A DNA stretch of 64,000 bases, from assembly GCA_963695075.1 (NCBI GenBank), contig CAVOFR010000005.1, forward strand, positions 196,352 through 260,351. The letters run 5' to 3'. The notes beneath the pieces were generated by a model. It searched no databases and had not been told where the DNA came from. It saw only the letters and a list, made by a program, of their open reading frames with translations. Both the position numbers and the translations under genes were made by a program. Source of the stretch: an uncultured Acidimicrobiales bacterium. GTDB taxonomy: Bacteria; Actinomycetota; Acidimicrobiia; Acidimicrobiales; CAWCAL01. Each line of letters starts with the position of its first letter. The stretch's first letter is position 1. Of this stretch, positions 9,809 through 56,387 are shown one piece after another.

Positions 9809-13405
<3,597 letters not shown>

Positions 13406-28704: not shown

Positions 28705-28714
28705 GCGCCGAATC

Positions 28715-30181: not shown

Positions 30182-30278
30182 GGGTCGGAGGATAGTGCCG
30201 ATCCTGATGCCGTGTCCCCACGATCGGCCGGCTGGTAGCTTCGGCGGTCCACGCCATTGACAATCCAGGAGACCAGCC

Positions 30279-30803: not shown

Positions 30804-31097
30804 GCCGGCATGACCGACCGGGTCACCGCGCTCGACCGCCTCCTCCGGCTGGTCGAGTCAGTGCCCAGGTCGACGCTGCCATCCTGCTCGGCCGAGGTGT
30901 GGGCGGCTGACGCTGCGTGAGGTCGGGTCGCTGAGCTGGTCGAGGCAGGCCGTGATTGCGAGGACGAGCACGGCGTCCTGATCGGGCGAGACCGCCGCCT
31001 CCACTGCCGGCTTGCCCCGGGTATGATGCCGGTCCTACAGGTCGGAGCGCGCCGCGGAGCGACGATTCCGAGGAACGAAGCGAAACGAGGCGCATCA

Positions 31098-31538: not shown

Positions 31539-31542
31539 AGGG

Positions 31543-31860: not shown

Positions 31861-31881
31861 CCCCCGGGACGGGTCCGCTCG

Positions 31882-33813: not shown

Positions 33814-33857
33814 ATGACCTGGACGACGATGCGGTCGCCGGCGAAACCCGGGGTTGG

Positions 33858-34253: not shown

Positions 34254-34391
34254 GGGATTGACCCTCCTCGGCAGACGCGCGTGGTTCTGCCCGGTGTGTG
34301 GATGTGCGGATAACGGCTTCGTGTCGACCCAACCCTAACCCGGGCGGATCGTCCGGGTCATCGACCACTACGGGTGAATGGACGACGGCGG

Positions 34392-38008: not shown

Positions 38009-38149
38009 GCCGTGCTCGGGTGGGTCGTGGCCGACCGTCCAATCGACCATTGTGGGTGACGACGGAGGAGGGGAGTCCTGGCAAGCTCAGGTGAGGGCGG
38101 GGGCGCGTTGGTGCCCGTGCCCTCCGGATCCAGACGAAGGGGCAGGTTC

Positions 38150-38602
38150 ATGAACGACACCTCCGACGAAGAGCTCGGACCGATCGACTACCTCGTCGTC
38201 GAGTTTCCGGCAGGAGCCAAGAACTTCGACGGCGCCATGGCGAGAGAACTGGCTTCGCTGGCCGAAGCCGAGCTCATCCAGATCCTCGACCTGATCGTCC
38301 TGGAGAAGGACGCCGATGGGGGCATCGAGGCACTGGAGATCGAGGACATGGGTGACCTTGGCGACCTCGGCGCGATCGAGGCCGGGCTCGCCGAGATCCT
38401 GGCCCTGGAGGATCTCGAGCACCTGGCCGCAGCGATGGAGCCCGGAAGCACCGCCGGCGTGTTGGTGTGGGAGAACACCTGGGCCGCACCGTTCGCCGTC
38501 GCCGCCCGGGAGTCGGGTGGGCAGCTGATCGCCAGCGGCCGCATCCCGACCCAGGCACTGATCGCCGCATTCGAAGCCGACGACGCGTCCGAGGAGGACT
38601 GA
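38150..38602 (+). CDS. DUF6325-like soluble protein, copy 2
   Basis: 150 aa: MNDTSDEELGPIDYLVVEFPAG...ILDLIVLEKDADG...ALEDLEHLAAAMEPGSTAGVLVWENTWAAPF...GG..I...RIP. Confidence 0.8.
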   Translation: MNDTSDEELGPIDYLVVEFPAGAKNFDGAMARELASLAEAELIQILDLIVLEKDADGGIEALEIEDMGDLGDLGAIEAGLAEILALEDLEHLAAAMEPGSTAGVLVWENTWAAPFAVAARESGGQLIASGRIPTQALIAAFEADDASEED

Positions 38603-38603
38603 C

Positions 38604-38753
38604 ATGCCCATGCGACCAGCACGACGAGCCCGCCGAGGGGTCATCGGAGGCCCGGTGCGGCGGACCGCCGCAGTGGCCGGGACCGCTGCGGTGGTGACCC
38701 ACGGTGTTCGCCGACGGGGCGACCGTCGCGACGACCGCCGCGGCCGCCGCTGA
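38604..38753 (+). CDS. 49-aa Arg-rich ORF, a SHOCT-less paralog of the partner gene (below the ORF-track length cutoff)
   Basis: MPMRPARRARRGVIGGPVRRTAAVAGTAAVVTHGVRRRGDRRDDRRGRR*. It starts 1 nt after the copy-2 stop and shares RTAAVAGTA with the N-termini of the genes at 31543 and 42388. Confidence 0.55.
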   Translation: MPMRPARRARRGVIGGPVRRTAAVAGTAAVVTHGVRRRGDRRDDRRGRR

Positions 38754-38802
38754 TCCTCCTCAGGCCAACGATCGTGCACGACCTGACTGGAGCAGACAAC
38801 CG

Positions 38803-41157: not shown

Positions 41158-41210
41158 CGGGTCGGTCGTCGACCGCTGGGACCGCTGACTACGGGCCACG
41201 AGCGGATCCG

Positions 41211-41252
41211 AGCCCGAGGCGAGAATCGAACTCGCGACCTGCTGTTTACAAG
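41211..41252 (-). repeat. 42-nt copy of the 3' part of tRNA-Thr(UGU), from the anticodon loop to the discriminator: candidate attR
   Basis: 38 of 42 nt are identical to 56084-56125. The four differences are two compensatory base-pair swaps in the T-stem (GCGAG/CTCGC versus AGGAG/CTCCT). The upstream sequence cannot form the anticodon or D stems. Confidence 0.8.
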
Positions 41253-41314
41253 TCGTGGGTCGAGTGTCCACCCAGGTCCGTCGCGGCCCGCCCTGTCCCG
41301 GAATCTGCGCTGAC

Positions 41315-41379
41315 GTCTCACGTGATTCAACCTCTGGTATCCGTGTTCGTCCAGCAATTCGTGAGACAAACCGTGAGAC
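41315..41379. repeat. GTGAGAC/GTCTCAC heptamer cluster next to the tRNA fragment (candidate arm-type recombinase sites, P arm)
   Basis: GTCTCAC at 41315-41321 and GTGAGAC at 41361-41367 and 41373-41379. The TTCGTGAGAC decamer is shared with 55971-55980. Confidence 0.4.
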
Positions 41380-41927
41380 GCCACACCTCCCCCCGAGGGA
41401 CCCGGTCGGACGATGGGCATTTGCGCGTTCGTCAGCGTGCTGCTCGCCCCCGCGCCGTTCATCCCCGGCGGATGAGGCGCTCGGGGGTCTGTATGTCGGA
41501 GCATGATCGCAGAGGTGTGATGCGCCGAGAGGGACGACCATGACCACATCCGATCGAACTCCAGCCAGGTTCGCCATCCGGTGATCGTCGCCACCGCGAT
41601 TGCGGTGGCGGAGCTATTGCGACGGTTCGCCGCTCGTCCCCATCTCGCTCGACGAGGAGCAGAGCTCGCGCACGAGGTGCTCGATCCGTGGGAGCAGGCG
41701 GTGGCCGACGAGCTGTCGCAGCATGCTGACCACCTGGCCGCCGACACTGCGCTGGCCGGCGTGTACGTCGGCGACCGGATCTGGCGCCGACGCCGCTGAC
41801 GGCGTAACAGCTTCGCTGTCGTTGCCGTCCGCTCCGCCGTTCGGCGCCCCGGCGATTCACCCGCGGCGGGTGACGACGGTGACCGGTCGTGATCGCACAC
41901 TGGGGCGACGTCCGAGGAGGCTGCTGC

Positions 41928-42347
41928 ATGTCCGAGAACCACGGTCCCATCGACTACGTCCTGCTCGAGTTCCGGGGCGGGCACCCGCTGGACGAGGTCG
42001 CAGAGTCGTTGATGGCCCTGGTCGGCTCGGGCGTCATCGCCCTGTACGACCTGGTGGCCATCCGCAAGGACGGCGACGGCACGTTCTCGGGCGTCGCGCT
42101 CGACGAGCTCGGAGGCTCGTTCGCCGCGTTCTCCGGTGCCGCCTCGGGGCTGCTCGGCGATGACGACATCGCCGAGGCGGCCGAGGTGCTCGAGCCGGGA
42201 ACCGCCGCAGCGCTCATCGTCTACGAGAACACCTGGGCAGTTCCGTTCGTGGACGCAGCCCTGCGAGCCGGCGGACAGATGGTCGCCACCGCACGACTGC
42301 CCGCCGAGGACGTCATCGCCGCCCTCGACGCACTCGAGTCAGCCTGA
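41928..42347 (+). CDS. DUF6325-like soluble protein, copy 3
   Basis: 139 aa after GAGGAGG: MSENHGPIDYVLLEF...ALYDLVAIRKDGDG...GDDDIAEAAEVLEPGTAAALIVYENTWAVPF...GG..V...RLP. Confidence 0.8.
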   Translation: MSENHGPIDYVLLEFRGGHPLDEVAESLMALVGSGVIALYDLVAIRKDGDGTFSGVALDELGGSFAAFSGAASGLLGDDDIAEAAEVLEPGTAAALIVYENTWAVPFVDAALRAGGQMVATARLPAEDVIAALDALESA

Positions 42348-42387
42348 ACGCCGACCAGACCGAACCAGAACAGCACAGGAGCACACC

Positions 42388-42714
42388 ATGCCAGGACTCA
42401 TCAGGGGAGTGGCCCGCACCGCGGCCGTTGCCGGCACAGCCACCGCAGTGAGCGGTCGCGTCCAACGCCGCCAGGCCGAGAAGTTCGCGTCGCGAGATGC
42501 CAGCACCCAGGTGCAGCGGGACCAGGCCTACCAGCAGCAGGCGCCCGGACCGGCACCGGCACCGGCGCCCGCACCGGTCGCCGCAGCCGCTGTCGCAGCG
42601 GCTCCCGCAACCAGCACGCTCGATCAGCTCCAGCAGCTGGGAGAGCTGAAGGCGCAGGGCATCCTCACCGACGCCGAGTTCGAGGCCCAGAAGGCCAAGA
42701 TCCTGGCGTCGTGA
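42388..42714 (+). CDS. Small protein with N-terminal RTAAVAGTATAVSGRVQRRQ motif and a C-terminal SHOCT domain, copy 3
   Basis: 108 aa: MPGLIRGVARTAAVAGTATAVSGRVQRRQAEKF..., an (PA)n linker, then LDQLQQLGELKAQGILTDAEFEAQKAKILAS. Confidence 0.8.
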   Translation: MPGLIRGVARTAAVAGTATAVSGRVQRRQAEKFASRDASTQVQRDQAYQQQAPGPAPAPAPAPVAAAAVAAAPATSTLDQLQQLGELKAQGILTDAEFEAQKAKILAS

Positions 42715-42826
42715 CCGCCGAACGGACGTGAGCGGGAACGGCCGCGAGGCGACCAGCCCGGTGACAGGTCCGCAGCCGTCGACCCGCCGCATCGTGACGG
42801 CAGGTCGGACGGAGGAGGGTTCGAAG

Positions 42827-43354
42827 GTGGTCGCAGCGCCCAGTGTTCTGCTGATCGGCATGATGGCGGCCGGAAAAACCACCGTGGGCCACGCACTCTC
42901 GGATCTGACCGGCTGGCCGTATCTGGACAACGACGAGTTGGTGAGGCGTGCCACGGGTCGACCGACGGCAGAGGTACTCGCTGCGGCGGATGAATCGACC
43001 CTGCGCCGAGTTGAGGTCGGGGCGCTCGACGAGGCGTTGAGCGCTCAGCCGCCGGTCATCGCCGGCGTGGCGGCCGGCGTCATCATCGATCCCGTCGATC
43101 GGCGACGGATGAGCGAGGGTGCCTTCGTGGTCTATTTGCGTGCGCCGGTCGCCCTGTTGGCCGAGCGAGTCGGCGGCGGCGACGGGCGACCGTGGCTGGA
43201 CACCAATGATCCGGCGGCGGCGCTCGAGGGGCTGTTCGAAGGACGCGAGCCGCTGTACTGCGAGGCGGCGGACCTGGTCCTGGATGTCGACGCCAAAGCT
43301 CCGGAGCGGTTGGCGATCGAGATACTTGACGCGCTCGAGCGTGGCGATCGATGA
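42827..43354 (+). CDS. Shikimate kinase-family P-loop kinase
   Basis: LLIGMMAAGKTTVG Walker A, DNDELV, and an AroK-like layout. GTG at 42827 follows GGAGGAGGG. The substrate (shikimate versus a sugar acid) cannot be assigned from sequence alone. Confidence 0.7.
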   Translation: MVAAPSVLLIGMMAAGKTTVGHALSDLTGWPYLDNDELVRRATGRPTAEVLAAADESTLRRVEVGALDEALSAQPPVIAGVAAGVIIDPVDRRRMSEGAFVVYLRAPVALLAERVGGGDGRPWLDTNDPAAALEGLFEGREPLYCEAADLVLDVDAKAPERLAIEILDALERGDR

Positions 43355-43621
43355 ACGAGGCACCTGCGCCCTCTCAGCGTCCGTTCACCGACGGTCCAAT
43401 CCGTGATCGCGAGGAGTTGGTGGAGAGTTCACCTCGGTCGCGCCTGCTCGCGGATAGGGCGGGTCTACCGTCCTGGTCAGGGGCCGGGCGGTCGGCATCT
43501 GCCAACTTTGCCGCCGACCGCCTGCTGCCGGATGGCCCGGTCCCACTGCTTCGTGTTCCTCTCGGGGTCGGATCGGATCGTCGGAGCGCGAGGGCGTCCG
43601 CGACACCAAGAGGTGAGTGAG

Positions 43622-46327
43622 ATGGGCAGTGAATCCGACCGGGCTTCAACGCTCGGTGGGCTCGAGAACGGACTACGTACGGCCGGAGACTGGTACCGAT
43701 GGGGCCCGTACCTCAGCGAGCGACAGTGGGGAACGGTGCGGGAGGACTACAGCGCCGACGGCACGGCGTGGGACTACCTCCCGCATGACCACGCACGCTC
43801 ACGCGCCTATCGCTGGGGTGAGGACGGGCTGGCCGGGTTCTCCGATGTCGAACAACGGCTGTGTCTGTCGCTGGCCCTGTGGAACGGGGTCGATCCGATC
43901 CTGAAGGAGCGGATCTTCGGGCTCACCGGCAACGAGGGCAACCACGGCGAGGACGCCAAGGAGTACTGGTGGTACTCCGACGCCGTCCCGAGTCATGCGT
44001 GGAACCGATGGCGGTACCACTACCCACAGTGCGCATTCCCCTACGCGGACCTGGTCGCGGAGAACGCCCGACGCGGCAAGAGCGAGCCGGAGTACGAGCT
44101 GCTCGACACCAGTGCCTTCGACGGCGATCGCTACTGGATCGTGGAGGTCGACTATGCCAAGGCGGATCCCGACGACCTGTTGATGGTCGTGCGGGTCACC
44201 AATGCGGCGGATGAACAGGCGACCCTGCATGTGTTGCCGACGGCGTGGTTCCGCAACACTTGGTCGTGGGGCGACGAGAACGATCGGCCGCAGCTCCGCA
44301 AGGGCGACGGTGTTGCGGTCGAGATCGACCACCCGTTCCTCGGATCGCTCGAGCTCCTGGCCGGCCCCGCGCCGGGCGGAGCGGAGCCGACGGTCCTGGT
44401 CTGCGACAACGAGACCAACACCGAGCGACTGTTCGGGCACGCAGGTCCGTCGCAGTTCCCCAAGGACGGGATCAACGACCACGTGGTCACCGGCGCGCCC
44501 ACGGTGAACCCTGAGGGCTCAGGCACCAAGGCGGCGCTGTGGTACCGACTGACGGTCGAGGGTGGAGCGACAGCAGATCTGCGTCTCCGGCTGCGGCCGA
44601 GCGGCTCGAAGCCTGCGCCATCGAGGGCGCTCGGCAAGAGCTTCAGCTCGATGATCGAGCGTCGCGCCACCGAGGCGGACGAGTTCTATGCGGAGCTCAC
44701 GCCCGCCGGAACCACAGCCGACGAGGCGCTCGTCATGCGACAGGCGTTCGCGGGGATGCTGTGGGGCAAGCAGCTCTACGCGTACGACGTCGCCCGCTGG
44801 CTGGACGGTGACCCGGGCCAGCCGGACCCACCACCGGATCGACGTTCGGGACGGAATGCCCGCTGGCGGGCATTCCGTGCGTTCGACATCATGTCGATGC
44901 CCGACAAGTGGGAGTACCCGTGGTTCGCCGCTTGGGACATGGCGTTCCACTGCGTGGCACTCGCGCACGTCGATCCGGCGTTCGCCAAGTACCAGCTCCT
45001 GTTGTTGTGCCGGGAGTGGTTCCAGAGCCCCAACGGTGCGCTGCCGGCTTACGAGTGGGCCTTCGATGACGTCAACCCCCCGGTGCAGGCCTGGGCTGCG
45101 CTCGAGGTGTTCGCCATCGACGGCGCCCGCGACCTGGACTTCCTCGAGCGGGTGTTCACGAAGTTGCTCGTCAACTTCACCTGGTGGGTCAACCGGCAGG
45201 ATGCTGACGGCACCAACCTGTTCGAGGGAGGCTTCCTCGGGCTCGACAACATCGGGCCGCTCGACCGGTCCCACCTGCCGGTCGACGGCCGGCTGGAGCA
45301 GTCAGACGCCACGTCGTGGATGGCCTTCTATGCCCTCGACATGGCGACGATCGCATCATTGCTGCGCAACCACGGGCGCCCCACCGAGGATCTCGCGGTC
45401 AAGTTCTTGGAGCACTTCGCGCAGATCCGCGACGCCATGGACGGCCAGGAGCTCTGGGACGACACCGACGGATTCTTCTACGACCGGCTGGTCGGACCGG
45501 ACGGAACGATCACGCCGGTCAAGGTCCGCTCGATGGTCGGTGTGCTCCCGCTCCTTGCGAGCACCGTGCTCGGTGAGGCCGCCATCGAGCGGGTGCTCGC
45601 GCTGGGAAGGACCGCAGCTGAGCGACTCGGACGCCGGGTCCTCGAGGACGAACGGCTCCGCGAGCGAGGGATGCTCCGGGGCAGCGTCGGAGACCGCCGG
45701 ATGATGGTGGGCGTGGTCGACATCGATCGGCTGCAGCGGGTGCTCCAACGACTGTTCGATCCCGACGAGTTCCTCTCGCCGCACGGCCTGCGGGCGCTGT
45801 CCCGAGCGCATCTCGACCATCCGGTCGACCTGGAGATCCAGGGAGTGACCGCGAGCGTCGACTACGAACCGGCGGAATCGACGACCTCGATGTTCGGGGG
45901 CAACTCGAACTGGCGCGGTCCGATCTGGTTCCCCCTCAACTACCTGGTGGTGAGCGCGCTCGAGCGGTACGGATGGTTCTTCGGTGACGAGCACACAATC
46001 GAGTATCCGACCGGCTCCGGGCAGCAGATGACCTTCGGCGCCATAGCGAGCGACCTGAGTGACCGGCTCATCTCCACCTTCCTGCTCGACCAGGACGCAC
46101 GACGGCCCTGCTACGGGTGGTCGGACCGGTTTCGAGACGATCCGCGGTGGCGCGATCAGCTGCTGTTCCACGAGTACTTCCATGGCGACAACGGAGCCGG
46201 GCTGGGGGCATCGCACCAGACCGGATGGACCGGTGTCGCAGCCGACCTCATCCGCCGCCGGCGCGGCGCCAGCATCCCGACCGTCACCGAGGTCCTCGAC
46301 CAGGCGATCCGGGACCACGATCGGTGA
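43622..46327 (+). CDS. GH63-like (MOGS / MGH1-like) glycoside hydrolase, long form
   Basis: 901 aa: WYRWGPYLSERQWGTVREDYS...RAYRWGEDGLAGF...ILKERIFGLTGNEGNHGEDAKEYWWY, with a C-terminal (alpha/alpha)6-type region. ATG follows AAGAGGTGAG. Confidence 0.7.
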   Translation: MGSESDRASTLGGLENGLRTAGDWYRWGPYLSERQWGTVREDYSADGTAWDYLPHDHARSRAYRWGEDGLAGFSDVEQRLCLSLALWNGVDPILKERIFGLTGNEGNHGEDAKEYWWYSDAVPSHAWNRWRYHYPQCAFPYADLVAENARRGKSEPEYELLDTSAFDGDRYWIVEVDYAKADPDDLLMVVRVTNAADEQATLHVLPTAWFRNTWSWGDENDRPQLRKGDGVAVEIDHPFLGSLELLAGPAPGGAEPTVLVCDNETNTERLFGHAGPSQFPKDGINDHVVTGAPTVNPEGSGTKAALWYRLTVEGGATADLRLRLRPSGSKPAPSRALGKSFSSMIERRATEADEFYAELTPAGTTADEALVMRQAFAGMLWGKQLYAYDVARWLDGDPGQPDPPPDRRSGRNARWRAFRAFDIMSMPDKWEYPWFAAWDMAFHCVALAHVDPAFAKYQLLLLCREWFQSPNGALPAYEWAFDDVNPPVQAWAALEVFAIDGARDLDFLERVFTKLLVNFTWWVNRQDADGTNLFEGGFLGLDNIGPLDRSHLPVDGRLEQSDATSWMAFYALDMATIASLLRNHGRPTEDLAVKFLEHFAQIRDAMDGQELWDDTDGFFYDRLVGPDGTITPVKVRSMVGVLPLLASTVLGEAAIERVLALGRTAAERLGRRVLEDERLRERGMLRGSVGDRRMMVGVVDIDRLQRVLQRLFDPDEFLSPHGLRALSRAHLDHPVDLEIQGVTASVDYEPAESTTSMFGGNSNWRGPIWFPLNYLVVSALERYGWFFGDEHTIEYPTGSGQQMTFGAIASDLSDRLISTFLLDQDARRPCYGWSDRFRDDPRWRDQLLFHEYFHGDNGAGLGASHQTGWTGVAADLIRRRRGASIPTVTEVLDQAIRDHDR

Positions 46328-48249
46328 ACGGACATCTTGGCGCCGCCACCATCGCGGACCTGGGTCCCGGCGCCTCCAGGGAGTGGCTGGTGGCCGACGG
46401 ACTCGGGGGCTTCGCGATGGGAACCGTCTGCGGTCTTCGGACCCGTCGATACCACGGGCTCCTCGTCACCGCCGTCGACGGGCCGGCCAACCGGATGTTG
46501 GGACTGGTGGCACTCGACCCGGTCCTGGTGATCGGCGACCGCCGAGTCCGCCTGTCCACCCACGAGTGGCACGACGGCGTGCTCGATCCGGTGGGACACA
46601 CGCTGCTCGCGACGTTCGACCTCGACGACGGCGTCCCCCGCTGGCGCTGGCAGTTCGGCGACGTCGTCCTCGAGCGTGAGATCGCCATGCAGCGCGGCCT
46701 CCCCGCTGTTGGCGTCGTGCATCGCCTGATCCGCTCGCCCTCACCGGTGCAGTTGGAGCTGATGCCGATCTGCACCTGGCGGTCGGTCCACGGCGAACGC
46801 CACGACGCCGGGGCTCCGGGCGTGACGCCGACCCACGACGGCTTCGTGTTCGAGAGCAGCTACCGCGTGATCGGACCGGGTTGGCAGCCGGGCGGCGACT
46901 GGTACCTCGGGGTGCGCACCCGTGAGGAAGCAGAGCGGGGCCTGGCCGATCAGGAGGATCTGTGGGCGGCGGGCCGGTTCTCTGCTGAGCTCGAACCCGG
47001 CCGGGCGCTGGAGGTCACGGCCTCGTCGACGTCGATCGACGGAGCGACACCGGCCGCAGTCGACATCGTGGACGGCGCCCGGTCGCGCGCCCGGATGCTG
47101 CAGGGACGAGCTGGGGCCACCGACCCAGCGACTCGACAGTTGGTGCTCGCTGCTGACATGTTCGTCATCGCCACGTCGAGCGGCCCCGGCGTCGTGGCCG
47201 GCTACCCATGGTTCGGCGAGTGGTCACGGGACACCATGACGTCGTATGAGGGGCTGTTCCTCGCGACCGGCCGCGACGACGAGGGCCGTGACGTCCTTCG
47301 GCGCGCGGCCGCCACCCTGTCCGAGGGCATGCTCGCGAACACGGCCGACACGGGGTCCCTCGAGTACAACACCGTCGACGCTGCGCTGTGGTTCGTCCAC
47401 GCAGTGGGCCGCCACCTCGCCGCAACCGGCGACGACGACCTCGCGGCCGAACTCGCGCCGGCGATCGCCACCGTCGTCGATCACCACATCAGCGGCACCC
47501 GGTTCGGCATCGGAGCGGACGCCGACGGCCTGCTCCGACAGGGCGCGGACGGCGTCGCTCTGACATGGATGGACGCTCGCGTCGACGGTGTCCCGGTCAC
47601 ACAGCGTGCCGGCAAGGCGGTCGAGATCAACGCGCTGTGGATCCAGGTGCTGCTGATCGAGCGCCGACTCGCGCACGCCTCACGGGTGACGGCCCCGGAC
47701 CGGGGAGGGCTCCTCGAGGTCGCTCAGGCGTCGTTCTTCCGGCGGTTCGTCCGCAGTGACGGCCGAGGGCTGTTCGACGTCGTCGACGGACCGACAGGCG
47801 ACGATGCAGCTGTTCGACCGAACCAGCTCCTCGCCGTCGCGCTGCCAGAGGGCCCGTTCTCCCGCGGCGATGCTCCGCCCACGGCGCCCGGCATCGCGCG
47901 CAGCGTCGTCGACGTGTGCGGGCACGCGCTGCTCACACCGATCGGCCTGCGCTCCCTCGATCCCACCGATCCCGCGTTCCGAGGGCGCCACCGTGGCGGC
48001 CCGGCGCAGCGGGACGCCGCCTACCACCAAGGCACCGTGTGGCCGTGGCTGATCGGCGCCTATGTCGACGCAGCCGGACGCACGGGGGTACCGGTCGACC
48101 ACCTCGTCGACCCGCTGGTCGCGCATCTCATGGAGTACGGCATGGGATCGGTGTCGGAGACAGCCGACGGCGACGCGCCTCACCGTGCGACCGGGGCTCC
48201 GTTCCAGGCCTGGTCGGTCGCCGAAGTGCTCCGGGTCGTGACTCGTTGA
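46324..48249 (+). CDS. Glycogen-debranching-enzyme-like protein (GDE N-terminal plus amylo-alpha-1,6-glucosidase domains)
   Basis: REWLVADGLGGFAMGTVCGLRTRRYHGLLV...GYPWFGEWSRDTM...YHQGTVWPWLIG...FQAWSVAE. The GTG overlaps the previous stop (GTGA). Confidence 0.78.
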   Translation: MNGHLGAATIADLGPGASREWLVADGLGGFAMGTVCGLRTRRYHGLLVTAVDGPANRMLGLVALDPVLVIGDRRVRLSTHEWHDGVLDPVGHTLLATFDLDDGVPRWRWQFGDVVLEREIAMQRGLPAVGVVHRLIRSPSPVQLELMPICTWRSVHGERHDAGAPGVTPTHDGFVFESSYRVIGPGWQPGGDWYLGVRTREEAERGLADQEDLWAAGRFSAELEPGRALEVTASSTSIDGATPAAVDIVDGARSRARMLQGRAGATDPATRQLVLAADMFVIATSSGPGVVAGYPWFGEWSRDTMTSYEGLFLATGRDDEGRDVLRRAAATLSEGMLANTADTGSLEYNTVDAALWFVHAVGRHLAATGDDDLAAELAPAIATVVDHHISGTRFGIGADADGLLRQGADGVALTWMDARVDGVPVTQRAGKAVEINALWIQVLLIERRLAHASRVTAPDRGGLLEVAQASFFRRFVRSDGRGLFDVVDGPTGDDAAVRPNQLLAVALPEGPFSRGDAPPTAPGIARSVVDVCGHALLTPIGLRSLDPTDPAFRGRHRGGPAQRDAAYHQGTVWPWLIGAYVDAAGRTGVPVDHLVDPLVAHLMEYGMGSVSETADGDAPHRATGAPFQAWSVAEVLRVVTR

Positions 48250-49400
48250 TCGCCATCCACGCGTTCGGGATCACCGAGCCGACACCCTGGCGGTCGGCGA
48301 CAGAGGTCGAACTCGTGGAGGTGACCAGCTCCTCGCTGTCGCTGCGACTGCTGAGCCTTGGTGCGGCGATCATGTCGCTCGAGGCACCCAACGAGGAGGG
48401 GCGAGTCCGTCCGGTGCACCTCGGCTTGACCTCGCTGACGGAGTACGAGGATCCGGGCCGCAATCCGCACCTCGGGGGCTCCATCGGCCGGTTCGCCAAC
48501 AGGATCGCGGGCTCCAGGTTCCACCTCGACGGCGCGGTCATCGAGGTGGCGAGCAACGAAGGCCCGAACCAGCTGCATGGTGGACCGATCGGGTTCGATC
48601 GCCACGTGTGGGAGCTCCTCGCAGCGGATACGGCCGATGACGGCGGGACCGTCGTGTTCCAACACGTCAGCCCGGACGGGGACCAGGGATTCCCCGGGAC
48701 CGTCACCGCCACGGCGATCTACGAGCTCGACGGGGACCGGCTCCGGATCACTTACCGGGCCACCACTGACGCCCCGACGGTGGTCAACCTGACCAACCAC
48801 GGCTACTGGAACCTCGACGGCTCCGACACGATCGAGGACCATTGGCTGCAGCTGGCTGCGAGCCGGGTGCTGCCGGTCGACGATGCCGGCATCCCGACGG
48901 GCGGACTGGTTCCGGTGGAGGGGACCTGGTTCGACCTGCGGCGTTCAACTCGCCTCGGCGCTGCGATGGCCGGGTCGCCGTCTGGCGGGTTCGACCACTG
49001 CTACGCCATCGACGGAACCGACGGCGTGCTCCATCCCGCGGCGGTTGTGCACGCCCCGCGGTCCGGCCGGTGGATGTCGGTGGAGACCGACCGTCCCGGC
49101 GTCCAGCTCTACACCGGGAACGGGCTCCGGTCGCCGTTCCACGCGCACGGTTCGGTGTCGCTCGAGACCCAACGGTTCCCCGACACGCCGAACCGACCCG
49201 ATCTGGGTTCCGCAGTGCTCCGGCCGGGCCAGGTCGAGGTGGCGCGGACGGAACTGCGCTTCGGCGTCGGCACCCCACCCAGCCTGGGCCCAGCGGGGTC
49301 GCAGGCCGAGGTGCCGGTGACTTCACCCGTCAGGGGTGACGACGCTGGCCATGCGCTCCGCGACAGTGGAGCGACGCGGCGAGAGCGAGGAACACCATGA
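48246..49400 (+). CDS. Aldose 1-epimerase (galactose mutarotase family)
   Basis: [19 protein letters not shown]......[16 protein letters not shown] and LTNHGYWNL motifs. The TTG start overlapping the previous stop is uncertain. The last ~50 aa are low-complexity. Confidence 0.75.
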
Positions 49401-50800
49401 GTCCGAACGAGCAGTCCCGATCGGATCTTCCGTGTGACGCCTTGGTCATCTTCGGCATCACCGGCGATCTCGCCAGGGTCATGACGTTCCGGTCGCTGTA
49501 CCGGCTCGAGCGGCGTGGCCTGCTGGACTGTCCGATCATCGGCGTGGCCGTCGAGGACTGGACCATCGCCGAGCTGGTCGACCGGGCACGGAGCTCGATC
49601 CTGGGGACCGGCGAGCAGCTCGACGAGGACGTCTTCGGTCGGCTCGTCGCTCGCCTGAGCTACGTGCAGGGAGACCTCACCGATGACACCACCTACGACC
49701 GGGTTGCGCTCGCGCTCGACGGTGCATCCGCTCCGGTCTTCTACCTCGAGATCCCGCCGTTCCTGTTCGGCGCCGTGGTGAAGGGGCTCGCCGGGGCAGG
49801 GCTGACCCGGAACGCCCGAGTCGTGGTGGAGAAGCCCTTCGGCCACGACCTGGCCTCGGCACGGGAGCTCGCCCAGGAGCTGCACCGGTACCTGGACGAG
49901 TCGCAGCTGTTCCGGATCGACCACTACCTGGGCAAGATGGGCCTCGAGGAGATCCTGTACCTCCGGTTCGCCAACACCATGTTGGAGCCGATCTGGAACC
50001 GCAACTACGTCGAGAGCCTCCAGATCACCATGGCCGAGGATTTCGGTGTCGAGACCCGCGGCCACTTCTACGATCCGGTCGGGGCGCTGCGCGACGTCGT
50101 GGTGAACCACCTCCTGCAGCTGCTGGCCGCGGCGACGATGGAGGCGCCGACCCGGGGCGATCCCGAGACGTTGCGGGACGCCCAGACCGCTGCGCTCCGG
50201 GCGATCAGGGAAGCGGATCCCACGCAGTACGTCCGTGGGCAGTACGACGGGTACACGTCGGTCGACGGCGTCGCAGCGAGCTCCACCACCGAGACCTACT
50301 GCGCGCTACGACTCGAGATCGAGAACTGGCGGTGGTCCGGCGTTCCGATCGTCATCCGCACCGGCAAGCTTCTTCCCATGACCCAGACCGAGGTGCGACT
50401 GGTGTTCAGGGAGTCCCCGCGGCTGGGCTTCGGGCTGCGCCAGGCCGACAGCGAGCCGAACCAGCTCGTGGTGAAGCTCGATCCGTCGACGGGCGTGAAG
50501 ATGACCCTGCAGGCACAGCGGGCCGACGCGCCGCTGCCCGAGGCCATCGACCTGGACATGGAGTTCGCCGACGAGGGCGGTGAGGGGCCAACCCCGTATG
50601 AGGTGCTGCTCGAGGCGGCGATGACCGGCCGCAGCGCGCGGTTCGCCCGCCAGGACACCGTGGAGGAGGCCTGGCGGGTGATGCAGCCACTGTTGGACGC
50701 CCCACCTCCGGTCCAGCGCTACTCGCCGGGCTCCTGGGGTCCCGCGGCCGCCGATGCGCTCGTCGCCGACGTCGGCGGCTGGCGGGGTCCATGGGTCTGA
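49397..50800 (+). CDS. zwf: Glucose-6-phosphate 1-dehydrogenase
   Basis: [11 protein letters not shown] dinucleotide fold, RIDHYLGK active-site motif and [16 protein letters not shown] overlap with the previous gene. Confidence 0.93.
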
Positions 50801-50860
50801 GCGCGCGCCAGCGAAACAACCAGATCGAAGCAGCAGGAACCAACAGACTGAGGAGTCGAG

Positions 50861-52561
50861 ATGAAGGTGATCATCGTCGGAGGAGTGGCGGGAGGCGCGT
50901 CGTGCGCGGCGCGCCTGCGTCGGCTGGACGAGCATGCGGAGATCCTCATGGTGGAGCGCGGGCCGTACGTGTCCTATGCGAACTGTGGCTTGCCCTACCA
51001 CGTCGGTGGTGTGATCGAGGACGAGTCGGACCTCCTGGTCGCCAGCCCCGAGCTGTTCCGCGCCCAGTTCCGCGTCGACGTGCGCACCGGGTGCGAGGTG
51101 ATCGACGTGTCCGCAGCGGATCACACCGTCCAGCTGCGTGACGTCGACAGCGGTGCGATCACCACCGAGCACTACGACCATCTCGTGCTGTCGCCCGGCG
51201 CTCGCTCGGTGCACCCGCCGATCCCTGGCATCGACCTTCCCGGCATCTTCCACGTCCGGACGGTGCCGGACGCACGCGAGATCCGGACCTGGATCGAACG
51301 CGGCTCGAACTTCCTGGCCGGGATGGGCCGCTACTCGGGGTTCCAGACCGTGCGCCCCTCGCCGCGCGCCGTCATCGTCGGTGGTGGGTTCATCGGACTG
51401 GAGACCGCCGAGAATTTGGTGCACCGGGGTTTCGACGTGACCGTCATCGAGCTGGCCCCTCAGGTGCTCGCACCTGTCGATGCCGAGTACGGCGACCTGG
51501 TGGGCGACTACCTCGAACAGCACGGTGTGCACGTGGTCGTCGGTGACGGCGTGAGCGGCTTCGAGCAGTCCGACGACGACAGCCTCGTGGTGTCCACGAA
51601 CGCGGGTGCCAGCTTCGACGCCGACCTGGTGATCCTGGCGCTGGGCGTCCGACCGGACACCACGCTGGCGACCGCAGCGGGCATCGAGGTCGGCGAGTTG
51701 GGCGGCATCCGGGTCGACGACCAGATGCGCACCAGCGACGCCGACATCTTCGCGGTGGGTGATGCGATCGAGGTCCGTGACGCGGTCACTGGAGAGTGGA
51801 GCCTCATGGCGCTGGCCGGGCCGGCGAACCGCCAGGGCCGGATCGCCGCCGAGGTGATCGCCGGACGCGACTCCCGCTTCCGGGGGACCCAGGGCACTGC
51901 GGTGGTCGGCCTGTTCGGATCGACGATCGCGTGGACCGGCGTAACAGAGCGAACCCTGCGACGCCTCGGCGACACGGACTGGGAGAAGGTGTACCTCTAC
52001 CCGAACTCGCACGCCGGGTACTACCCGGGTGCGAAGCCGATCGCGATGAAGGTCCTGTTCCGCGTCAGCGACGGCCGCTTGCTGGGCGCGCAGGCAGCTG
52101 GCGAGGACGGCGTCGACAAGCGCATCAGCGAGCTGGCGTTGGCGATCCAGATGGGCGCGACCGTGTACGACCTCGAGGAGTCGGAGCTCTGCTACGCACC
52201 GCCCTTCGGTAGTGCGAAGGACCCGGTCAACTTCGCGGGCATGGTCGCCTCCGGGGTGCTCCGCGGCGACATGCTGATCAGCCACTGGGGCGACGACGAC
52301 GGGGCCTACCTGCTCGACGTGCGGGAGACCTTCGAGCTCGCCGTCGAGCACGTGGCGGGCGCCACGCACATACCGCTCGGGGAGCTCCGCGGGCGGCTCG
52401 GCGAGCTGCCCACGGATCGCACCATCCACGTGGTCTGCCGGTCGGGTCAACGTGCCTACTACGCGGCTCGGATGCTGTCGCAGCACGGCTACGACGCGAA
52501 GGTGCGCTCTGGGGGAATGCTGTCCCGGGCGATCCTGGTGCCGAGCGAGGGCGACAGATGA
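50861..52561 (+). CDS. CoA-disulfide reductase / NADH oxidase-family flavoprotein with a C-terminal rhodanese domain
   Basis: KVIIVGGVAGGAS FAD fold, single redox Cys in SYANCGLPY, second Rossmann fold VIVGGGFIGLE, and rhodanese loop VVCRSGQRA. Confidence 0.85.
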   Translation: MKVIIVGGVAGGASCAARLRRLDEHAEILMVERGPYVSYANCGLPYHVGGVIEDESDLLVASPELFRAQFRVDVRTGCEVIDVSAADHTVQLRDVDSGAITTEHYDHLVLSPGARSVHPPIPGIDLPGIFHVRTVPDAREIRTWIERGSNFLAGMGRYSGFQTVRPSPRAVIVGGGFIGLETAENLVHRGFDVTVIELAPQVLAPVDAEYGDLVGDYLEQHGVHVVVGDGVSGFEQSDDDSLVVSTNAGASFDADLVILALGVRPDTTLATAAGIEVGELGGIRVDDQMRTSDADIFAVGDAIEVRDAVTGEWSLMALAGPANRQGRIAAEVIAGRDSRFRGTQGTAVVGLFGSTIAWTGVTERTLRRLGDTDWEKVYLYPNSHAGYYPGAKPIAMKVLFRVSDGRLLGAQAAGEDGVDKRISELALAIQMGATVYDLEESELCYAPPFGSAKDPVNFAGMVASGVLRGDMLISHWGDDDGAYLLDVRETFELAVEHVAGATHIPLGELRGRLGELPTDRTIHVVCRSGQRAYYAARMLSQHGYDAKVRSGGMLSRAILVPSEGDR

Positions 52562-54426
52562 GCTTCCCGCCGATCGCCGACTACGCGTTCCTCTCGGACT
52601 GCGAGGTGAACGCCCTGGTCGCTCCCGACGGGTCCGTGGAGTGGATGTGCCTGCCCCGACCCGACGCGCCCAGCGTCTTCGGGTCCCTCCTGGACCGTTC
52701 GGCGGGCTACTTCCGTTTCGGTCCCAGCAACACCGCCGTGCCTCACCAGCGCCGTTATCTGCCGGGAACCCTGGCGACCGAGACGACCTGGCACACCCCG
52801 ACCGGATGGCTGACCGTCCACGACGTCCTGGTCGTGGGACCGGTGTCCGACGAGCGACGCGAGGACTATCGGCGCTCACCCGGCGACGACATCTCGCAGC
52901 GGACGCTGCTGCGTATCGCAACCTGCTTCGACGGCCAAGTGGAACTCGAGGTCAACTGCCTTCCCCTCTTCGACTACGGCAGGGATCAGGGCACCTGGGA
53001 CTTCGACGGCCCCGGATACGACCGGGCCACCGTCACGTCAGGGGAACTGACCCTGACCATGGGCGGCAGTGTCCGCCTCGGGCTCGTCGGACCCCGCTGC
53101 TACGGCCGCACGACGTTGCAGGCGGGCGAGTCGGCCTTCGTCGCGCTGGGATGGGGTGGCGACGTTCCGGCGGATCTCGACCAGGCGCTCGACCAGCTGC
53201 ACCGGACGGAGGGCTTCTGGCGTGAGTGGATGAGCATGGCCAACTTCCCGGACCACCGCTTCCGCCCGTACATCGAACGCAGCGCACTCGCGCTGAAGGG
53301 TCTCAGCTACGCGCCGACCGGGGCGATCATGGCCGCCGCGACCACATCGCTGCCCGAGACTCCCGGCGGCGAACGCAACTGGGACTACCGCTACACCTGG
53401 ATACGTGACACCGGATTCATGCTCCGGGCACTGCACAGCCTGGGGTTCAACTGGGAGGCGTTCGAGTACTTCGCCTTCGTGCTCGACTCCCTCACCACCG
53501 GAGAGCCCGCCGCCCCGTGGGACCTGCAGATCATGTACGGCATCCGAGGTGAGCGCGACCTGACCGAGCACACCCTCGACCACCTCACGGGTTACCGCGG
53601 GTCGCGTCCCGTCCGCACCGGCAACGGCGCCTTCGACCAGCGCCAACACGACGTCTGGGGAATGCTCCTGGACGCGGTCGCGGAACACTTCCGACAGGGT
53701 GGTCAGCTCGCACCGGTAGCGTGGGAGCATCTGGCCGGCCTGGTCGACCTTGCCATCGAACGTAGCTCCGAGCCGGATCAGGGCATCTGGGAGATGCGAG
53801 GCGCGCCACAGCACTTCGTCGCGTCGAAGGTGCTGTGTTGGGTCGCTGCCGACCGAGGAGCGAGCCTCGCCGAGCTGCGGGGTGATGGCGAGCGGGTCGA
53901 CCGCTGGCGGGCCGCCGCGGCCCGGATCGCCGGCGAGATCTGCGAGCGGGGCCTCGACGAGCGCGGCGTGTTCACCCAGCACTACGACACCACCGACCTC
54001 GACGCCTCCCTCCTCCTCATCCCCATCATGGGCTTCCTGCCGCCTGACGACGAGCGGGTGCGAGCGACCGTGTTGGCCATCGCGGACGAGCTCACCGAGG
54101 AAGGGCTCGTGCTGCGGTACCGCGTCGATCGCACCGACGACGGACTCAGCGGAGAGGAGGGCACCTTCACGATCTGTTCGTTCTGGCTCGTCTCCGCGCT
54201 GGCAATGATCGGCGAGCTCGAGGCAGCGGGCGCGTTGTTCGACAAGCTCCTGTCCTTCGCGGGCCCACTCCAGCTCTACGCCGAGGAGATCGACGTCCGG
54301 ACCGGCCAGCACCTCGGCAACTTCCCCCAGGCGTTCACCCACTTGGCGCTCATCGACGCGGCGAAGCGGCTCATCGACGCAGAGGACGCCGGACCGCACC
54401 CGGCACCGATCCACCCGACGCCGTGA
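52558..54426 (+). CDS. GH15 glycoside hydrolase (glucoamylase / trehalase family)
   Basis: IADYAFLSDCEVNALVAPDGSVEWMCLPR, WDYRYTWIRD, IWEMRG, and an (alpha/alpha)6 C-terminus. ATGA overlap with the previous gene. Confidence 0.85.
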   Translation: MSFPPIADYAFLSDCEVNALVAPDGSVEWMCLPRPDAPSVFGSLLDRSAGYFRFGPSNTAVPHQRRYLPGTLATETTWHTPTGWLTVHDVLVVGPVSDERREDYRRSPGDDISQRTLLRIATCFDGQVELEVNCLPLFDYGRDQGTWDFDGPGYDRATVTSGELTLTMGGSVRLGLVGPRCYGRTTLQAGESAFVALGWGGDVPADLDQALDQLHRTEGFWREWMSMANFPDHRFRPYIERSALALKGLSYAPTGAIMAAATTSLPETPGGERNWDYRYTWIRDTGFMLRALHSLGFNWEAFEYFAFVLDSLTTGEPAAPWDLQIMYGIRGERDLTEHTLDHLTGYRGSRPVRTGNGAFDQRQHDVWGMLLDAVAEHFRQGGQLAPVAWEHLAGLVDLAIERSSEPDQGIWEMRGAPQHFVASKVLCWVAADRGASLAELRGDGERVDRWRAAAARIAGEICERGLDERGVFTQHYDTTDLDASLLLIPIMGFLPPDDERVRATVLAIADELTEEGLVLRYRVDRTDDGLSGEEGTFTICSFWLVSALAMIGELEAAGALFDKLLSFAGPLQLYAEEIDVRTGQHLGNFPQAFTHLALIDAAKRLIDAEDAGPHPAPIHPTP

Positions 54427-55346
54427 CCGGCCCCACGACCGGTCCGGTCGCCGAAGCGTGCACGAGCGAGCAGTGCCACCTGGGTGAGGGTGTCCGCTGG
54501 GACGCCCGACGCGACGAACTGCTCCGGGTCGACATCCTCGCCGGCACCGTGTTCCGGGACCGGATCGACTCCGACGGTCGACTCAGCCGCGTCCGTTCCT
54601 ACGATCTCAACGAGCCAGTCGGCGCGATCGCACCCATCGAGGGCGACGACGGTTGGCTCGTCGCCGCCGGGAGAGGGTTCCTCCACCTGGCACCCGACGG
54701 CCGGACCACGTCGATCGCGACCGACGTCACGCCGCCCGGAACCAGAATGAACGACGCAGCCGCCGATACCCAGGGGCGGTACTGGGCGGGCACGATGGCC
54801 GAGGACCATCACGACGGCGGCGGCGCGCTCTACCGCATGGACCTCGACGGCGGGATCCTCCGCGTGCTGGATGGCCTGACGATCTCCAACGGGCTGGGAT
54901 GGAGCCCCGACGGCGCCACCATGTACCTGGCCGACAGTGGACCACGCGTGGTTCATTCGTACGACTTCGACGCGGAGGCAGGCACCCTCTCGAACGAGCG
55001 CCCCTTGGTCACCTTCGAACAGGGGCTCGGTGCCCCCGACGGTCTGACGGTGGACGCTCAGGGCGACCTGTGGGTGGCCGTCTACGGAGGCGGACAGGTG
55101 CGTCGCTACTCACCCGACGGCATGCTGCTGCAGGTCCTCACGTTCCCAGCCGCCCAGACCACCTGCTGCGCGTTCGCAGGGCCCGGTCTGCGCTGGTTGT
55201 ACGTCACCACCGCGACGGAGGGCTGGACCGACGAGCAGCGTCTCGCTTCCCCTGACGCCGGCGTGGTCTACCGGGTCGAGACCGACACCTATGGCGTTCC
55301 GGCAGCGCCGTTCCGCCCGGACCGCAGGTGGTGGGCGGTACGCTGA
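54423..55346 (+). CDS. SMP-30 / gluconolactonase / LRE-family protein
   Basis: CHLGEGVRWD, NDAAADTQGRYWAGTM, SNGLGWSPDG and PDGLTVDAQGDLWVA beta-propeller motifs. GTGA overlap with the previous gene. Confidence 0.85.
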   Translation: MTGPTTGPVAEACTSEQCHLGEGVRWDARRDELLRVDILAGTVFRDRIDSDGRLSRVRSYDLNEPVGAIAPIEGDDGWLVAAGRGFLHLAPDGRTTSIATDVTPPGTRMNDAAADTQGRYWAGTMAEDHHDGGGALYRMDLDGGILRVLDGLTISNGLGWSPDGATMYLADSGPRVVHSYDFDAEAGTLSNERPLVTFEQGLGAPDGLTVDAQGDLWVAVYGGGQVRRYSPDGMLLQVLTFPAAQTTCCAFAGPGLRWLYVTTATEGWTDEQRLASPDAGVVYRVETDTYGVPAAPFRPDRRWWAVR

Positions 55347-55377
55347 GATGAAGCAAACGCGGCCCAGTCGTGCTCGG

Positions 55378-55779
55378 TCACGGCGCGGGCGGCTCGACGT
55401 GGCCGCCGAACTGGCTGCGCATCGCCGAGAGCACCCGGTTCGCCGCCGCCTCCTCGCCGCGGGAGCTGAATCGGGAGAAGAGCGCTGCCGCCAGCACCGG
55501 CGCCGGCACACCCAGGTCGACCGCGGCCTCGAGGGACCACCGGCCCTCACCGCTGTCGCTCACAACGCCGCTGAAGCCCTCCAGCTCGGGATCCGCCACG
55601 AGCGCGGACGCGGTCAGGTCCAGCAGCCACGAGCCCACGACGCTGCCGCGGCGCCACAGCTCGGTGATGGCCGGCAGGTCCAGGTCGAAGCCGTACGGCC
55701 CTGTGTGGTCCAGCAGGTTCAGTCCCTCGGCGTAGGCGGCCATGAGCCCGTACTCGATGCCGTTGTGCACCATCTTCAC
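55378..55779 (-). pseudogene. gnd: 6-phosphogluconate dehydrogenase, C-terminal fragment only (Rossmann domain missing)
   Basis: [19 protein letters not shown]...[11 protein letters not shown]...DSGEGRWS...AMRSQFGGH matches only the C-terminal half of Gnd. Upstream of VKMVHNG the frame is low-complexity and abuts the integrase remnant. Confidence 0.7.
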
Positions 55780-55946
55780 AGGAGCGCACCCCCGGCCGCA
55801 GCGGCGAGCACGAGCCGGCCGAACAAGGCTGGCTGCACTGCGGGCCGAGCGGCGCGGGACACTTCGCGCGTCAACGGGTCCTCGCCTGCGTCGACGCGCA
55901 GCTCCCAGGTCCCCGGCCGTCGTCCCTTGCGCTTGCTGCCCTGCAT
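55776..55946 (-). pseudogene. Tyrosine-integrase N-terminal remnant
   Basis: [33 protein letters not shown] resembles the N-terminal arm-binding segment of actinobacterial site-specific integrases (K/R-rich, then W.LRV..G.DP.TG). It terminates after 56 codons with no catalytic domain, and it lies ~140 nt from the tRNA 3' end. Confidence 0.45.
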
Positions 55947-55973
55947 CCGCTGCCTCCGTTCTCGCACCGATTC

Positions 55974-56002
55974 GTGAGACGTCGGTGAGATTCCGTGAGA
56001 CA
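55974..56002. repeat. Three direct GTGAGAC-type heptamers (candidate arm-type sites, P' arm)
   Basis: GTGAGAC at 55974-55980, GTGAGAT at 55986-55992 and GTGAGAC at 55996-56002. They are followed by the inverted repeat GGTCAGG...CCTGACC (~56010-56036). Confidence 0.4.
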
Positions 56003-56083
56003 CGGTGACGGTCAGGTCTGAACACCAACCTGACCACGTGCCCAGAACCCTGCAATTCCAGGGGTTTCGGCGGGTCTGAACTG

Positions 56084-56156
56084 AGCCCGAGAGGAGAATC
56101 GAACTCCTGACCTGCTGTTTACAAGACAGCTGCTCTGCCATCTGAGCTACCCGGGC
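56084..56156 (-). tRNA. tRNA-Thr (anticodon UGU)
   Basis: 73-nt cloverleaf. Acceptor GCCCGGG/CTCGGGC (one G-U pair), D-stem GCTC/GAGC, anticodon stem GCTGT/ACAGC with loop CTTGTAA, variable loop AGGTC, T-arm AGGAG-TTCGATT-CTCCT. CCA is not encoded. Confidence 0.92.
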
Positions 56157-56387
56157 GAAGCAACCCAGGGTATCGGTCGCCCCGACCCCCTACCCCTCTC
56201 GAACTTTGTGCGCTCCCAGTACCTATTTGCGAGCCAGAGCACAAAGTTCGGCGGTTGGGGGGCGGGTCCGGGCGGGGGGTCCTTGCGCGGACATACCGCA
56301 GCGGGGAAGATGCGGGGGTTGAACGTCGTTCGTTCGCGCTCGCCTCCCCCGGCGTTTCGATCTTCCCCCCAAATCTAGGAGACCCTG

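Follow-up and report, generated by a model that had tools for sequence, protein, structure and literature searches.

The DNA analysed here is a window of 64,000 nucleotides (nt) of contig CAVOFR010000005.1, from an uncultured Acidimicrobiales bacterium, and the subject of this report is the stretch of 14.9 kb located between an intact tRNA-Thr(UGU) gene and a displaced copy of the 3' part of that gene. The intact gene lies at 56083-56156 on the minus strand, where ARAGORN calls a tRNA-Thr(tgt) and Rfam RF00005 matches 56084-56156 with 66.9 bits, both programs agreeing with the complete tRNA that a first-pass annotation, made from the sequence alone, had placed at this right end. The displaced or duplicated copy occupies 41210-41252 (−), in the same orientation, and extends from the anticodon loop to the discriminator. 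Its counterpart is the last 43 nt of the tRNA gene (56083-56125, −), and these two segments are referred to below as the cores of attR and attL, respectively. The block of identity begins at C32 of the anticodon loop and ends just past the discriminator, and a repeat search of the window returns the pair 41205-41252 and 56078-56125 at 88% identity.

The fragment reads CTTGTAAACAGCAGGTC-GCGAG-TTCGATT-CTCGC-CTCGGGCTC, whereas the tRNA gene has AGGAG...CTCCT at those stem positions. Direct reading of the two copies bears out the 3' copy as first described: 38 of 42 nt are identical, and all four mismatches belong to two compensatory pair swaps in the T-stem, pair 49-65 being G-C in the fragment and A-T in the gene, and pair 50-64 being C-G in the fragment and G-C in the gene, so that both versions are perfectly paired. 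By our own combinatorics, four random changes in 42 nt would form two complementary T-stem pairs with a chance of ~1e-5. Furthermore, ARAGORN folds a valid tRNA-Thr with a perfect GCGAG/CTCGC stem when the 5' part of the tRNA is joined to the fragment. The compensatory swaps thus indicate that both copies of the repeat were shaped as functional tRNA ends. The 24-mer GAGTTCGATTCTCNNCTCGGGCTC, which covers the T-arm and the acceptor strand, has exactly two matches in the window when up to three mismatches are allowed (0.00 in shuffled sequence), and no further tRNA-Thr-like fragment was found in the 64 kb, including degenerate ones that might bound the 25-41 kb region. A tRNA-His(atg) called by ARAGORN at 55256-55331 (+), inside the 3' end of a lactonase gene, has no Rfam match and was rejected as a false positive.

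Just inside each repeat lies DNA that recurs in a family of elements with a tRNA-Thr(UGU)-specific integrase, hereafter family E, whose members are designated by their locus numbers (L). At the tRNA end, the P' arm (55947-56082, −), assigned from its identity to family attL regions, carries the arm-type repeats GTCTCACGGAA (55991-56001) and GTCTCACGAAT (55970-55980) and is 91-96% identical at the nucleotide level to the attL regions of at least 15 metagenome and viral contigs. At the fragment end, the P arm (41253-41381, −), assigned in the same way from family attR regions, carries GTCTCACGGTT (41369-41379) and GTCTCACGAAT (41357-41367) together with an inverted copy at 41315-41322 (+), and is 80-92% nt identical to the attR regions of L050, L056, L064, L067, L073, L077, L081, L082, and L085. 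The paired motif reads GTCTCACGG-N12-GTCTCACGAAT on the tRNA side (55970-56001, −) and GTCTCACGG-N3-GTCTCACGAAT on the fragment side (41357-41379, −), and such pairs occur in both window arms and in independent family members, as expected at the sequence level of an arm-type attP. The 8-mer GTCTCACG is not in overall excess in the window (6 found vs 6 expected); five of the six copies are clustered in two patches of 30-65 bp, within 130 bp inside the repeats. The GTCTCACG repeats of both arms are most likely integrase arm-binding sites, by analogy with known attachment sites. Indeed, attP of the lambda, mycobacteriophage L5, and pSAM2 type consists of a core and arm-type integrase sites, the core overlapping the 3' end of a tRNA gene. 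The likeness to these systems resides in the short direct repeats of both window arms, located 70-130 bp from the core, in the start of the integrase gene (int), which directly adjoins the P' arm in the element family, and in the family core, which runs from the anticodon loop of the tRNA to its 3' end. The window differs from them in that the arm sites are putative and that the family members examined have neither phage structural genes nor genes typical of actinomycete integrative and conjugative elements (FtsK-like Tra, Rep).

The family was delineated by running the motif GTCTCACGG-N(0-20)-GTCTCACGAAT against IMG/VR and metagenome contigs. IMG/VR yielded a single contig of 66 kb with both arm versions. 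Its first locus has the core, the P' arm, and an intact tyrosine integrase of 377 aa (PF00589), with 96% nt identity to window 55858-56129, and its second locus, with P arm and core, is 91% identical to window 41210-41381. A distance of 19.2 kb separates the two cores, which enclose genes for a TrwC relaxase-helicase, a DUF3427/PLD helicase, a response regulator, and a phosphorylase, and the GC content of this element is 0.644 vs 0.705 and 0.675 in its flanks. The metagenome search returned 53 stretches, the full-length integrases of which are 94-97% identical to the reference copy, and family E integrases are mostly 91-100% identical to one another. Four contigs (L058, L081, L088, and L104) have the full tRNA-Thr(tgt) followed by the core, the P' arm, and int, and L094 has the tRNA, core, and P' arm with no int detected. 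The P arm and core are found in seven contigs (L064, L067, L073, L077, L081, L082, and L085), and in L081 both element ends lie on one contig, 6 kb apart. The intact layout, tRNA-Thr/core/P' arm/integrase at one end and P arm/core at the other, is thus seen in L081, in L058 together with L073, and in the IMG/VR contig. Moreover, the junction between P arm and core (...CCACGA/CTTGTAAACAGC) is identical in the window and in the family. Since family arm sequence lies inside each of the two window repeats and the junctions are common to the family, the repeats are identified, from sequence, as the attL and attR relics of one integrase family.

Both copies are genuine att relics; that the element brought its own version of the tRNA 3' end, as proposed in the first-pass annotation, is one possibility, since the T-stems of the family contradict one another about the direction of the swap. 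The AGGAG/CTCCT stem of the intact window gene is also present in the tRNA-Thr of the nearest relatives (L041 and L044) and in most family att sites. Variant yet paired T-stems occur on either side, at attL in L104 and L094 and at attR in the window and in L082, and for this reason it cannot be fixed which copy is derived from the host. An anticodon-loop crossover is reportedly usual for identity blocks that start there; if the crossover took place in the anticodon loop, AGGAG/CTCCT would come from the element and the GCGAG/CTCGC fragment would be the host original.

Similarity of the window to family E (80-96% nt) is restricted to 55858-56160 and 41206-41877. On the tRNA side, attL-type family matches that reach int all stop at 55858, except that of L088, which stops at 55862. 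There, only the first 27 codons of the integrase gene survive (55866-55946, −, ATG at 55946), as established by translation and by alignment to the intact 377-aa integrase of L051. The integrase N-terminal remnant noticed earlier inside the tRNA end is therefore real, and the element is indeed fixed in place, its integrase being destroyed from codon 28 onward. The stub abuts an inverted 83-nt piece of gnd (55783-55865, +), which directly precedes VKMVHNG in the intact gene and was recognised by tblastn with the gnd of L001 and L014 (match 55788-55871, +). Beyond it comes the 3' third of a short-form 6-phosphogluconate dehydrogenase gene, gnd (55378-55779, −; Pfam 6PGD, NCBIfam TIGR00872, tblastn), which lacks about its first 170 codons, spans positions 170-296 of the 299 of the TIGR00872 model, and has its stop at 55378. 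The order across the junction, namely int codon 27, the inverted gnd piece, and gnd from VKMVHNG, identifies it as the scar of one complex illegitimate deletion-inversion event, which accounts for both a gnd pseudogene and an integrase stub. Because this event left only a stub of int, the island is immobile. The deletion may have been as small as ~1.6 kb, since some family members (L081) carry cargo directly after int. At the far end, about 625 bp of element-derived DNA are retained (41253-41877). They include a segment (41436-41877, +) that matches L064, a locus with this P arm and core, at 80.7% nt identity, and a small conserved ORF of 72 aa, orfX (41581-41799, +), which is 89% identical at the amino acid level in L064 and matches no Pfam family.

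The interior between these two ends is as first described, Pfam and NCBIfam agreeing on a third DUF6325 module, a P-loop kinase, and a seven-gene operon encoding glycosidases, zwf, and a lactonase. By Pfam, the DUF6325 gene (copy 3, 41928-42347, +) is followed by a SHOCT-domain gene ending at 42714 (+) and by a P-loop kinase of the shikimate kinase family SKI (42728-43354, +; PF01202, all NCBIfam matches being below cutoff). The same kinase sits in gnd-kinase-epimerase clusters of relatives, as judged by synteny in L001 and L014. The operon (43403-55346, +; Pfam, NCBIfam), in which stop and start codons overlap or abut, encodes in order a GH63/MGH1-like glycosidase (43403-46327, +), a glycogen-debranching-type protein, GDE (about 46324-48249, +), an aldose 1-epimerase (48252-49400, +), zwf (49397-50800, +), a CoA-disulfide-reductase-like protein with a rhodanese domain, CoADR (50861-52561, +), a GH15 trehalase-like protein (52558-54426, +), and an SMP-30/gluconolactonase, SGL (54423-55346, +). 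The gnd stub is convergent to it. As a whole, the interior looks like a module that would break down trehalose/glycogen-type glucans into the oxidative pentose-phosphate pathway. DUF6325 copy 3 has 51% aa identity to copy 1 and 36% to copy 2; with such values, the copies are old paralogues, and the idea of "module copies" arisen by recent duplication was dropped.

In our view, the 14.9 kb stretch is probably what remains, now immobile, of an ordinary genomic island that an integrase inserted into tRNA-Thr, the sugar/pentose-phosphate operon being its probable cargo. A small integrative element of family E, whose tyrosine integrase is directed to the 3' part of tRNA-Thr(UGU), would have integrated into the tRNA-Thr gene of the window. 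The full tRNA would have been remade at 56083-56156 (attL), with the P' arm and int after it, and the 43-nt copy of the tRNA 3' end would have been left at 41210-41252 (attR), with the P arm before it. The cargo, located between int and the P arm, would most likely have comprised DUF6325, SHOCT, the SKI kinase, the seven-gene operon, and the convergent gnd. A later illegitimate event would then have deleted int from codon 28 on, the int-gnd interval, and about the first 170 codons of gnd, and would have flipped the adjacent 83 nt of gnd; without an integrase, the island would have become fixed in the chromosome.

Arrival of the 14 kb as cargo is suggested by four lines of evidence, namely the position of cargo in the family, a codon-usage shift, the occurrence of the operon in a mobile island elsewhere, and the spacing of the chromosomal backbone in a relative. 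Family members differ in the cargo carried between int and the P arm: DUF6226, GNAT, and APH genes in L081, defence-like genes plus the relaxase in the IMG/VR element, and a toxin-antitoxin-like gene pair (one member with an RHH/CopG domain) plus orfX in L064. This variable cargo occupies exactly the position of the block in the window, which favours the interior as cargo.

Synonymous codon usage was compared by a leave-one-out synonymous-codon likelihood. Among 25 sliding blocks of 10 genes, the one at 41928-55779 stands out most clearly (0.031 nats per codon, p = 3.5e-5), and blocks that do not overlap it, including those covering 25-41 kb, all have p > 0.1. GCC and CCC are used less, GCG and CCG more, and these codons drive the shift. 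The NCC/NCG ratio alone gives a weak difference (p = 0.02, and p = 0.08 for plus-strand genes only); this single-feature index was dropped as a marker of the block, which only the full leave-one-out model separates. In terms of compositional discontinuity, the picture is mixed, with a codon-usage shift confined to the block and flat GC and GC skew.

The operon was also traced outside the window through the 90% cluster of the window GH15, which led to ENA ERZ25039500 contig_12399 (L113-L115 merged, 42.4 kb). On this contig, zwf, CoADR-rhodanese, GH15, and SGL are collinear with window 49445-55285 (77.8% nt) and lie between a TrwC relaxase gene and an E-type DUF3427 helicase pseudogene, the latter with 82.7% nt identity to the IMG/VR element. 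The island adjoins a tRNA-Leu(gag), which is overlapped by the 3' end of a large serine recombinase gene. It resembles the window in its DUF6325 gene and collinear operon and also carries the E-type DUF3427 helicase gene, and it differs in its large serine recombinase, in its target tRNA, in the lack of GH63, GDE, and epimerase genes, and in that its GH15 and helicase genes are pseudogenes. Since the operon lies on a relaxase-bearing island, it therefore travels in mobilizable islands of the clade. The contig_12399 island further contains MFS, TMEM175, and PRiA4_ORF3 genes in addition to DUF6325, and its GC passes from about 0.72 outside to 0.66-0.70 within.

The surroundings of the tRNA gene are retained in some relatives. 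In L041, L044, and L048, tRNA-Thr, LytR_C, otsB, and GT20 are kept together, the DNA on the 3' side is different, and otsB is 57-70% identical. The fourth line of evidence is the backbone radA-disA-crp-ispD-ispF-SpoU ... tRNA-Thr-LytR_C-otsB-GT20-GlyK-ThiS, which is collinear between the window and L048. The distance from SpoU to tRNA-Thr is less than 1 kb in L048, one distant relative, vs 30.7 kb in the window. From this comparison with one distant relative, the 3' flank of tRNA-Thr(UGU) may be a variable region or hot spot.

The tRNA-proximal and the fragment-proximal DNA could also stem from two or more elements that inserted successively at tRNA-Thr. An older island with the sugar operon would have ended at 41210, a later E copy would have inserted beside the tRNA, and the deletion-inversion would have taken out the later element together with the middle att site and the integrase end of the older one, as far as gnd. 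Tandem arrays are indeed frequent at tRNA-Thr in the family: in L078, the tRNA is followed after 2.3 kb by a second core with P' arm and int, two cores lie ~5.4 kb apart in L059 and L101, and L064 has another relaxase gene just outside attR. In addition, the window has 16 kb more extra DNA at the same flank. Such a composite origin nevertheless calls for additional events compared with a single cargo-bearing element, the window's P and P' arms belong to the same family, and a middle att site leaves no trace in the window. We regard it as unlikely.

Several observations weigh against arrival of the interior with the element, and the most direct of them concern composition and the distribution of the operon. 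Windowed GC and GC skew are flat across both boundaries, with no step. The codon shift is small and could alternatively reflect an expression level common to one operon. None of the sampled E-family loci carries the operon between E-type att sites. Furthermore, a collinear SKI/epimerase/zwf/CoADR/GH15/SGL operon occurs in L107 and L108 (79.6% nt), with no integrase or tRNA either in the 10 kb on each side in L107 or in the whole 9.7 kb contig of L108. In L107, it stands near DUF1269 and DUF7144 genes, like those of the left flank of the window outside the island, and in the window itself DUF6325 and SHOCT modules are present both inside and outside the island.

Comparison with relatives adds to these reservations. 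An empty site, with tRNA-Thr directly followed by GGATCCGCTCGTGG... and the sulfatase gene, was not found among the relatives compared, because the nearest relatives are only ~70% identical in protein; indeed, the closest otsB homologues are 70% identical to that of the window. The sulfatase gene in question (784 aa, 38803-41157, +; Pfam) flanks the island on its outer side and has homologues of 79-85% identity. Homology to relatives ends exactly at its stop codon, the blastn matches of L109-L112 ending at 41157/41158. Relatives with a sulfatase gene of 83% nt identity have no adjoining tRNA-Thr, and the contexts of the sulfatase homologues show neither an empty site nor a contiguous block. 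For exact matches to the window zwf and otsB, no contig context was recovered, and the epimerase contig search gave only relatives at no more than 75%, in which the gene order is scrambled and tRNA-Thr is absent and which are useless as an empty-site comparison.

These observations could be accommodated if the 14 kb block were native chromosomal DNA that the att relics came to flank by a multi-step rearrangement, either through two elements at two tRNA-Thr-like sites and two deletions, or through translocation of the block into a gutted element. The flat GC, the L107 operon with similar stress genes as chromosomal neighbours and no mobility genes within 10 kb, and the paralogous DUF6325/SHOCT modules just outside the island would all fit such a history. 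However, no fewer than three novel junctions, or else a second tRNA-Thr(UGU) gene, would be needed for it, the block is matched exactly by the codon-usage shift, the same operon is found inside a mobilizable island elsewhere (contig_12399), and the junction between fragment and sulfatase resembles a normal attR-to-flank junction. We consider such a native origin of the block rather improbable. As for the repeat being no att pair at all, and rather a chance match or a decayed local tRNA duplication, nothing speaks for it beyond the shortness of the repeat, and this reading, of negligible probability given a chance expectation of 0.00 and the compensatory changes, is refuted by the family-specific arms inside both copies and by junctions common to dozens of independent contigs.

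Two broader ideas can be put forward jointly, albeit as a doubtful extension. Family E, often seen in tandem arrays, may be a major vehicle that carries a trehalose/glycogen-to-oxidative-pentose-phosphate "stress" operon (zwf, CoADR-rhodanese, GH15, lactonase, and gnd) among uncultured Acidimicrobiia lineages. The paired non-consensus T-stems at both attL and attR could in turn reflect a variable crossover point or side of resolution, so that element and host would swap tRNA T-arms either way.

As for classification, tDNA islands, catalogued by Islander as tyrosine-integrase islands of tRNA or tmRNA genes, end in a regenerated tRNA gene and a displaced fragment (PMC4383910). Like those islands, the 14.9 kb stretch has the full tRNA at one end and a same-orientation 3' fragment at the other, an integrase gene beside the tRNA, and cargo between the ends. 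It departs from them in that the integrase gene is cut to 27 codons, where Islander calls for a tyrosine integrase gene, in its immobilisation by a deletion-inversion that also truncated a cargo gene, and in its host, an uncultured Acidimicrobiia lineage. Integrative and mobilizable elements (IMEs) have been reviewed (PMC5704250), and some members of family E resemble them in having a TrwC (MOBF-type) relaxase alongside the common integrase and att arms, in lacking genes for a conjugation pore, and in tandem accretion at one site. In contrast to IMEs, the window copy lacks a relaxase throughout 41-56 kb, as does the minimal member L081, whose lack of one indicates that the relaxase is not constant in family E. 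Without a working integrase or relaxase, the window copy is a relic and not a functional member, although its integrase stub, like the P' arm, has 91-96% nt identity to copies with an intact PF00589 integrase. An identity as an actinomycete integrative and conjugative element was rejected, no FtsK/SpoIIIE-like transfer gene or replication initiator being present in the window island or in the annotated family members, and a prophage identity was rejected as Pfam revealed no capsid, tail, terminase, or lysis genes among all island ORFs and the IMG/VR element. The window thus holds an ordinary decayed genomic island, which leaves the current understanding of genomic islands unchallenged.

This analysis identifies 41.2-56.1 kb as a block that is fixed and was probably acquired horizontally, within a poorly sampled Microthrixaceae-like genome, and suggests the 3' flank of tRNA-Thr(UGU) as a hot spot, with about 30 kb more DNA there than in one distant relative. 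As a by-product, it defines the core, the arms, and the variable cargo (defence-like, resistance-like, toxin-antitoxin-like, and metabolic) of a widespread, uncharacterised family of tRNA-Thr-specific integrative elements in Acidimicrobiia. This family could serve island detection in metagenome-assembled genomes and could give a site-specific integration tool for an uncultured clade.

Some members of family E depart from the common layout. In a sub-family (L059 703/6067, L101 6154/794, and L078 72/2447), the core, P' arm, and int are common and the sequence to the left of the core differs (GTCCAAGGACGC); GTCCAAGGACGC recurs ~5.4 kb away beside a second, divergent tRNA-like core, which suggests tandem or circularly assembled small elements at tRNA-Thr. 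In L052 (9568-9864, IMG/VR UViG_3300048599_000546), the attL core stands outside any tRNA gene, with CTGT and the 3' part only, after an unrelated divergent gene; either the 5' part of the tRNA was lost or the element was placed at a leftover fragment. In L069 (596-669), a family attL lies in a tRNA called Thr(cgt), and not Thr(tgt), by ARAGORN, which may mean that a second tRNA-Thr isoacceptor is also accepted by the integrase, or else that the anticodon mutated.

On the outer side of the fragment, the ~16 kb between the conserved SpoU-type methylase gene and the island (25340-41157) have no counterpart in L048. This segment includes a DUF222 ORF (24773-26473, −), the 3' end of which overlaps the SpoU-type gene, L33 and L28 genes (about 26.8-27.2 kb, −), and genes for an acyl-CoA dehydrogenase, an alpha-L-fucosidase, DUF1269, DUF6325, SHOCT, and an RCK channel. 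Further along come genes for DUF7144, a radical-SAM/SPASM enzyme, a LuxR-type regulator, a second DUF6325, and the sulfatase. The region 25340-41157 is not bounded by any att relic, and its codon usage looks native; compared with that same single distant relative, 25.3-41.2 kb may be another 16 kb of additional DNA on this tRNA flank. The radical-SAM/SPASM gene (34392-35690, −) lies 3 kb from the sulfatase gene (38803-41157, +), an arrangement that would fit an anaerobic sulfatase-maturating enzyme with its substrate. In relatives, the LuxR/DUF6325/SHOCT neighbourhood around the sulfatase is kept, but in inverted orientation.

Near the left edge of the window, positions 1479-1573 hold three head-to-tail copies of the 30-nt unit GTCGATCTCAAGTAGATCGATCATGTGACG, two of them perfect and one with a single change. 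The unit corresponds to the last codons and stop of an L7/L12-like ORF, identified by eye, plus 13 nt downstream, and the array is a triplication of the 3' end of this gene. Genes for L7/L12 and rpoB are usually adjacent; here, the region 1567-9293, between the L7/L12-like ORF and rpoB (9806-13405), contains genes for a xylose-isomerase-like TIM barrel, a P450, an unknown protein, and a fused ABC transporter.

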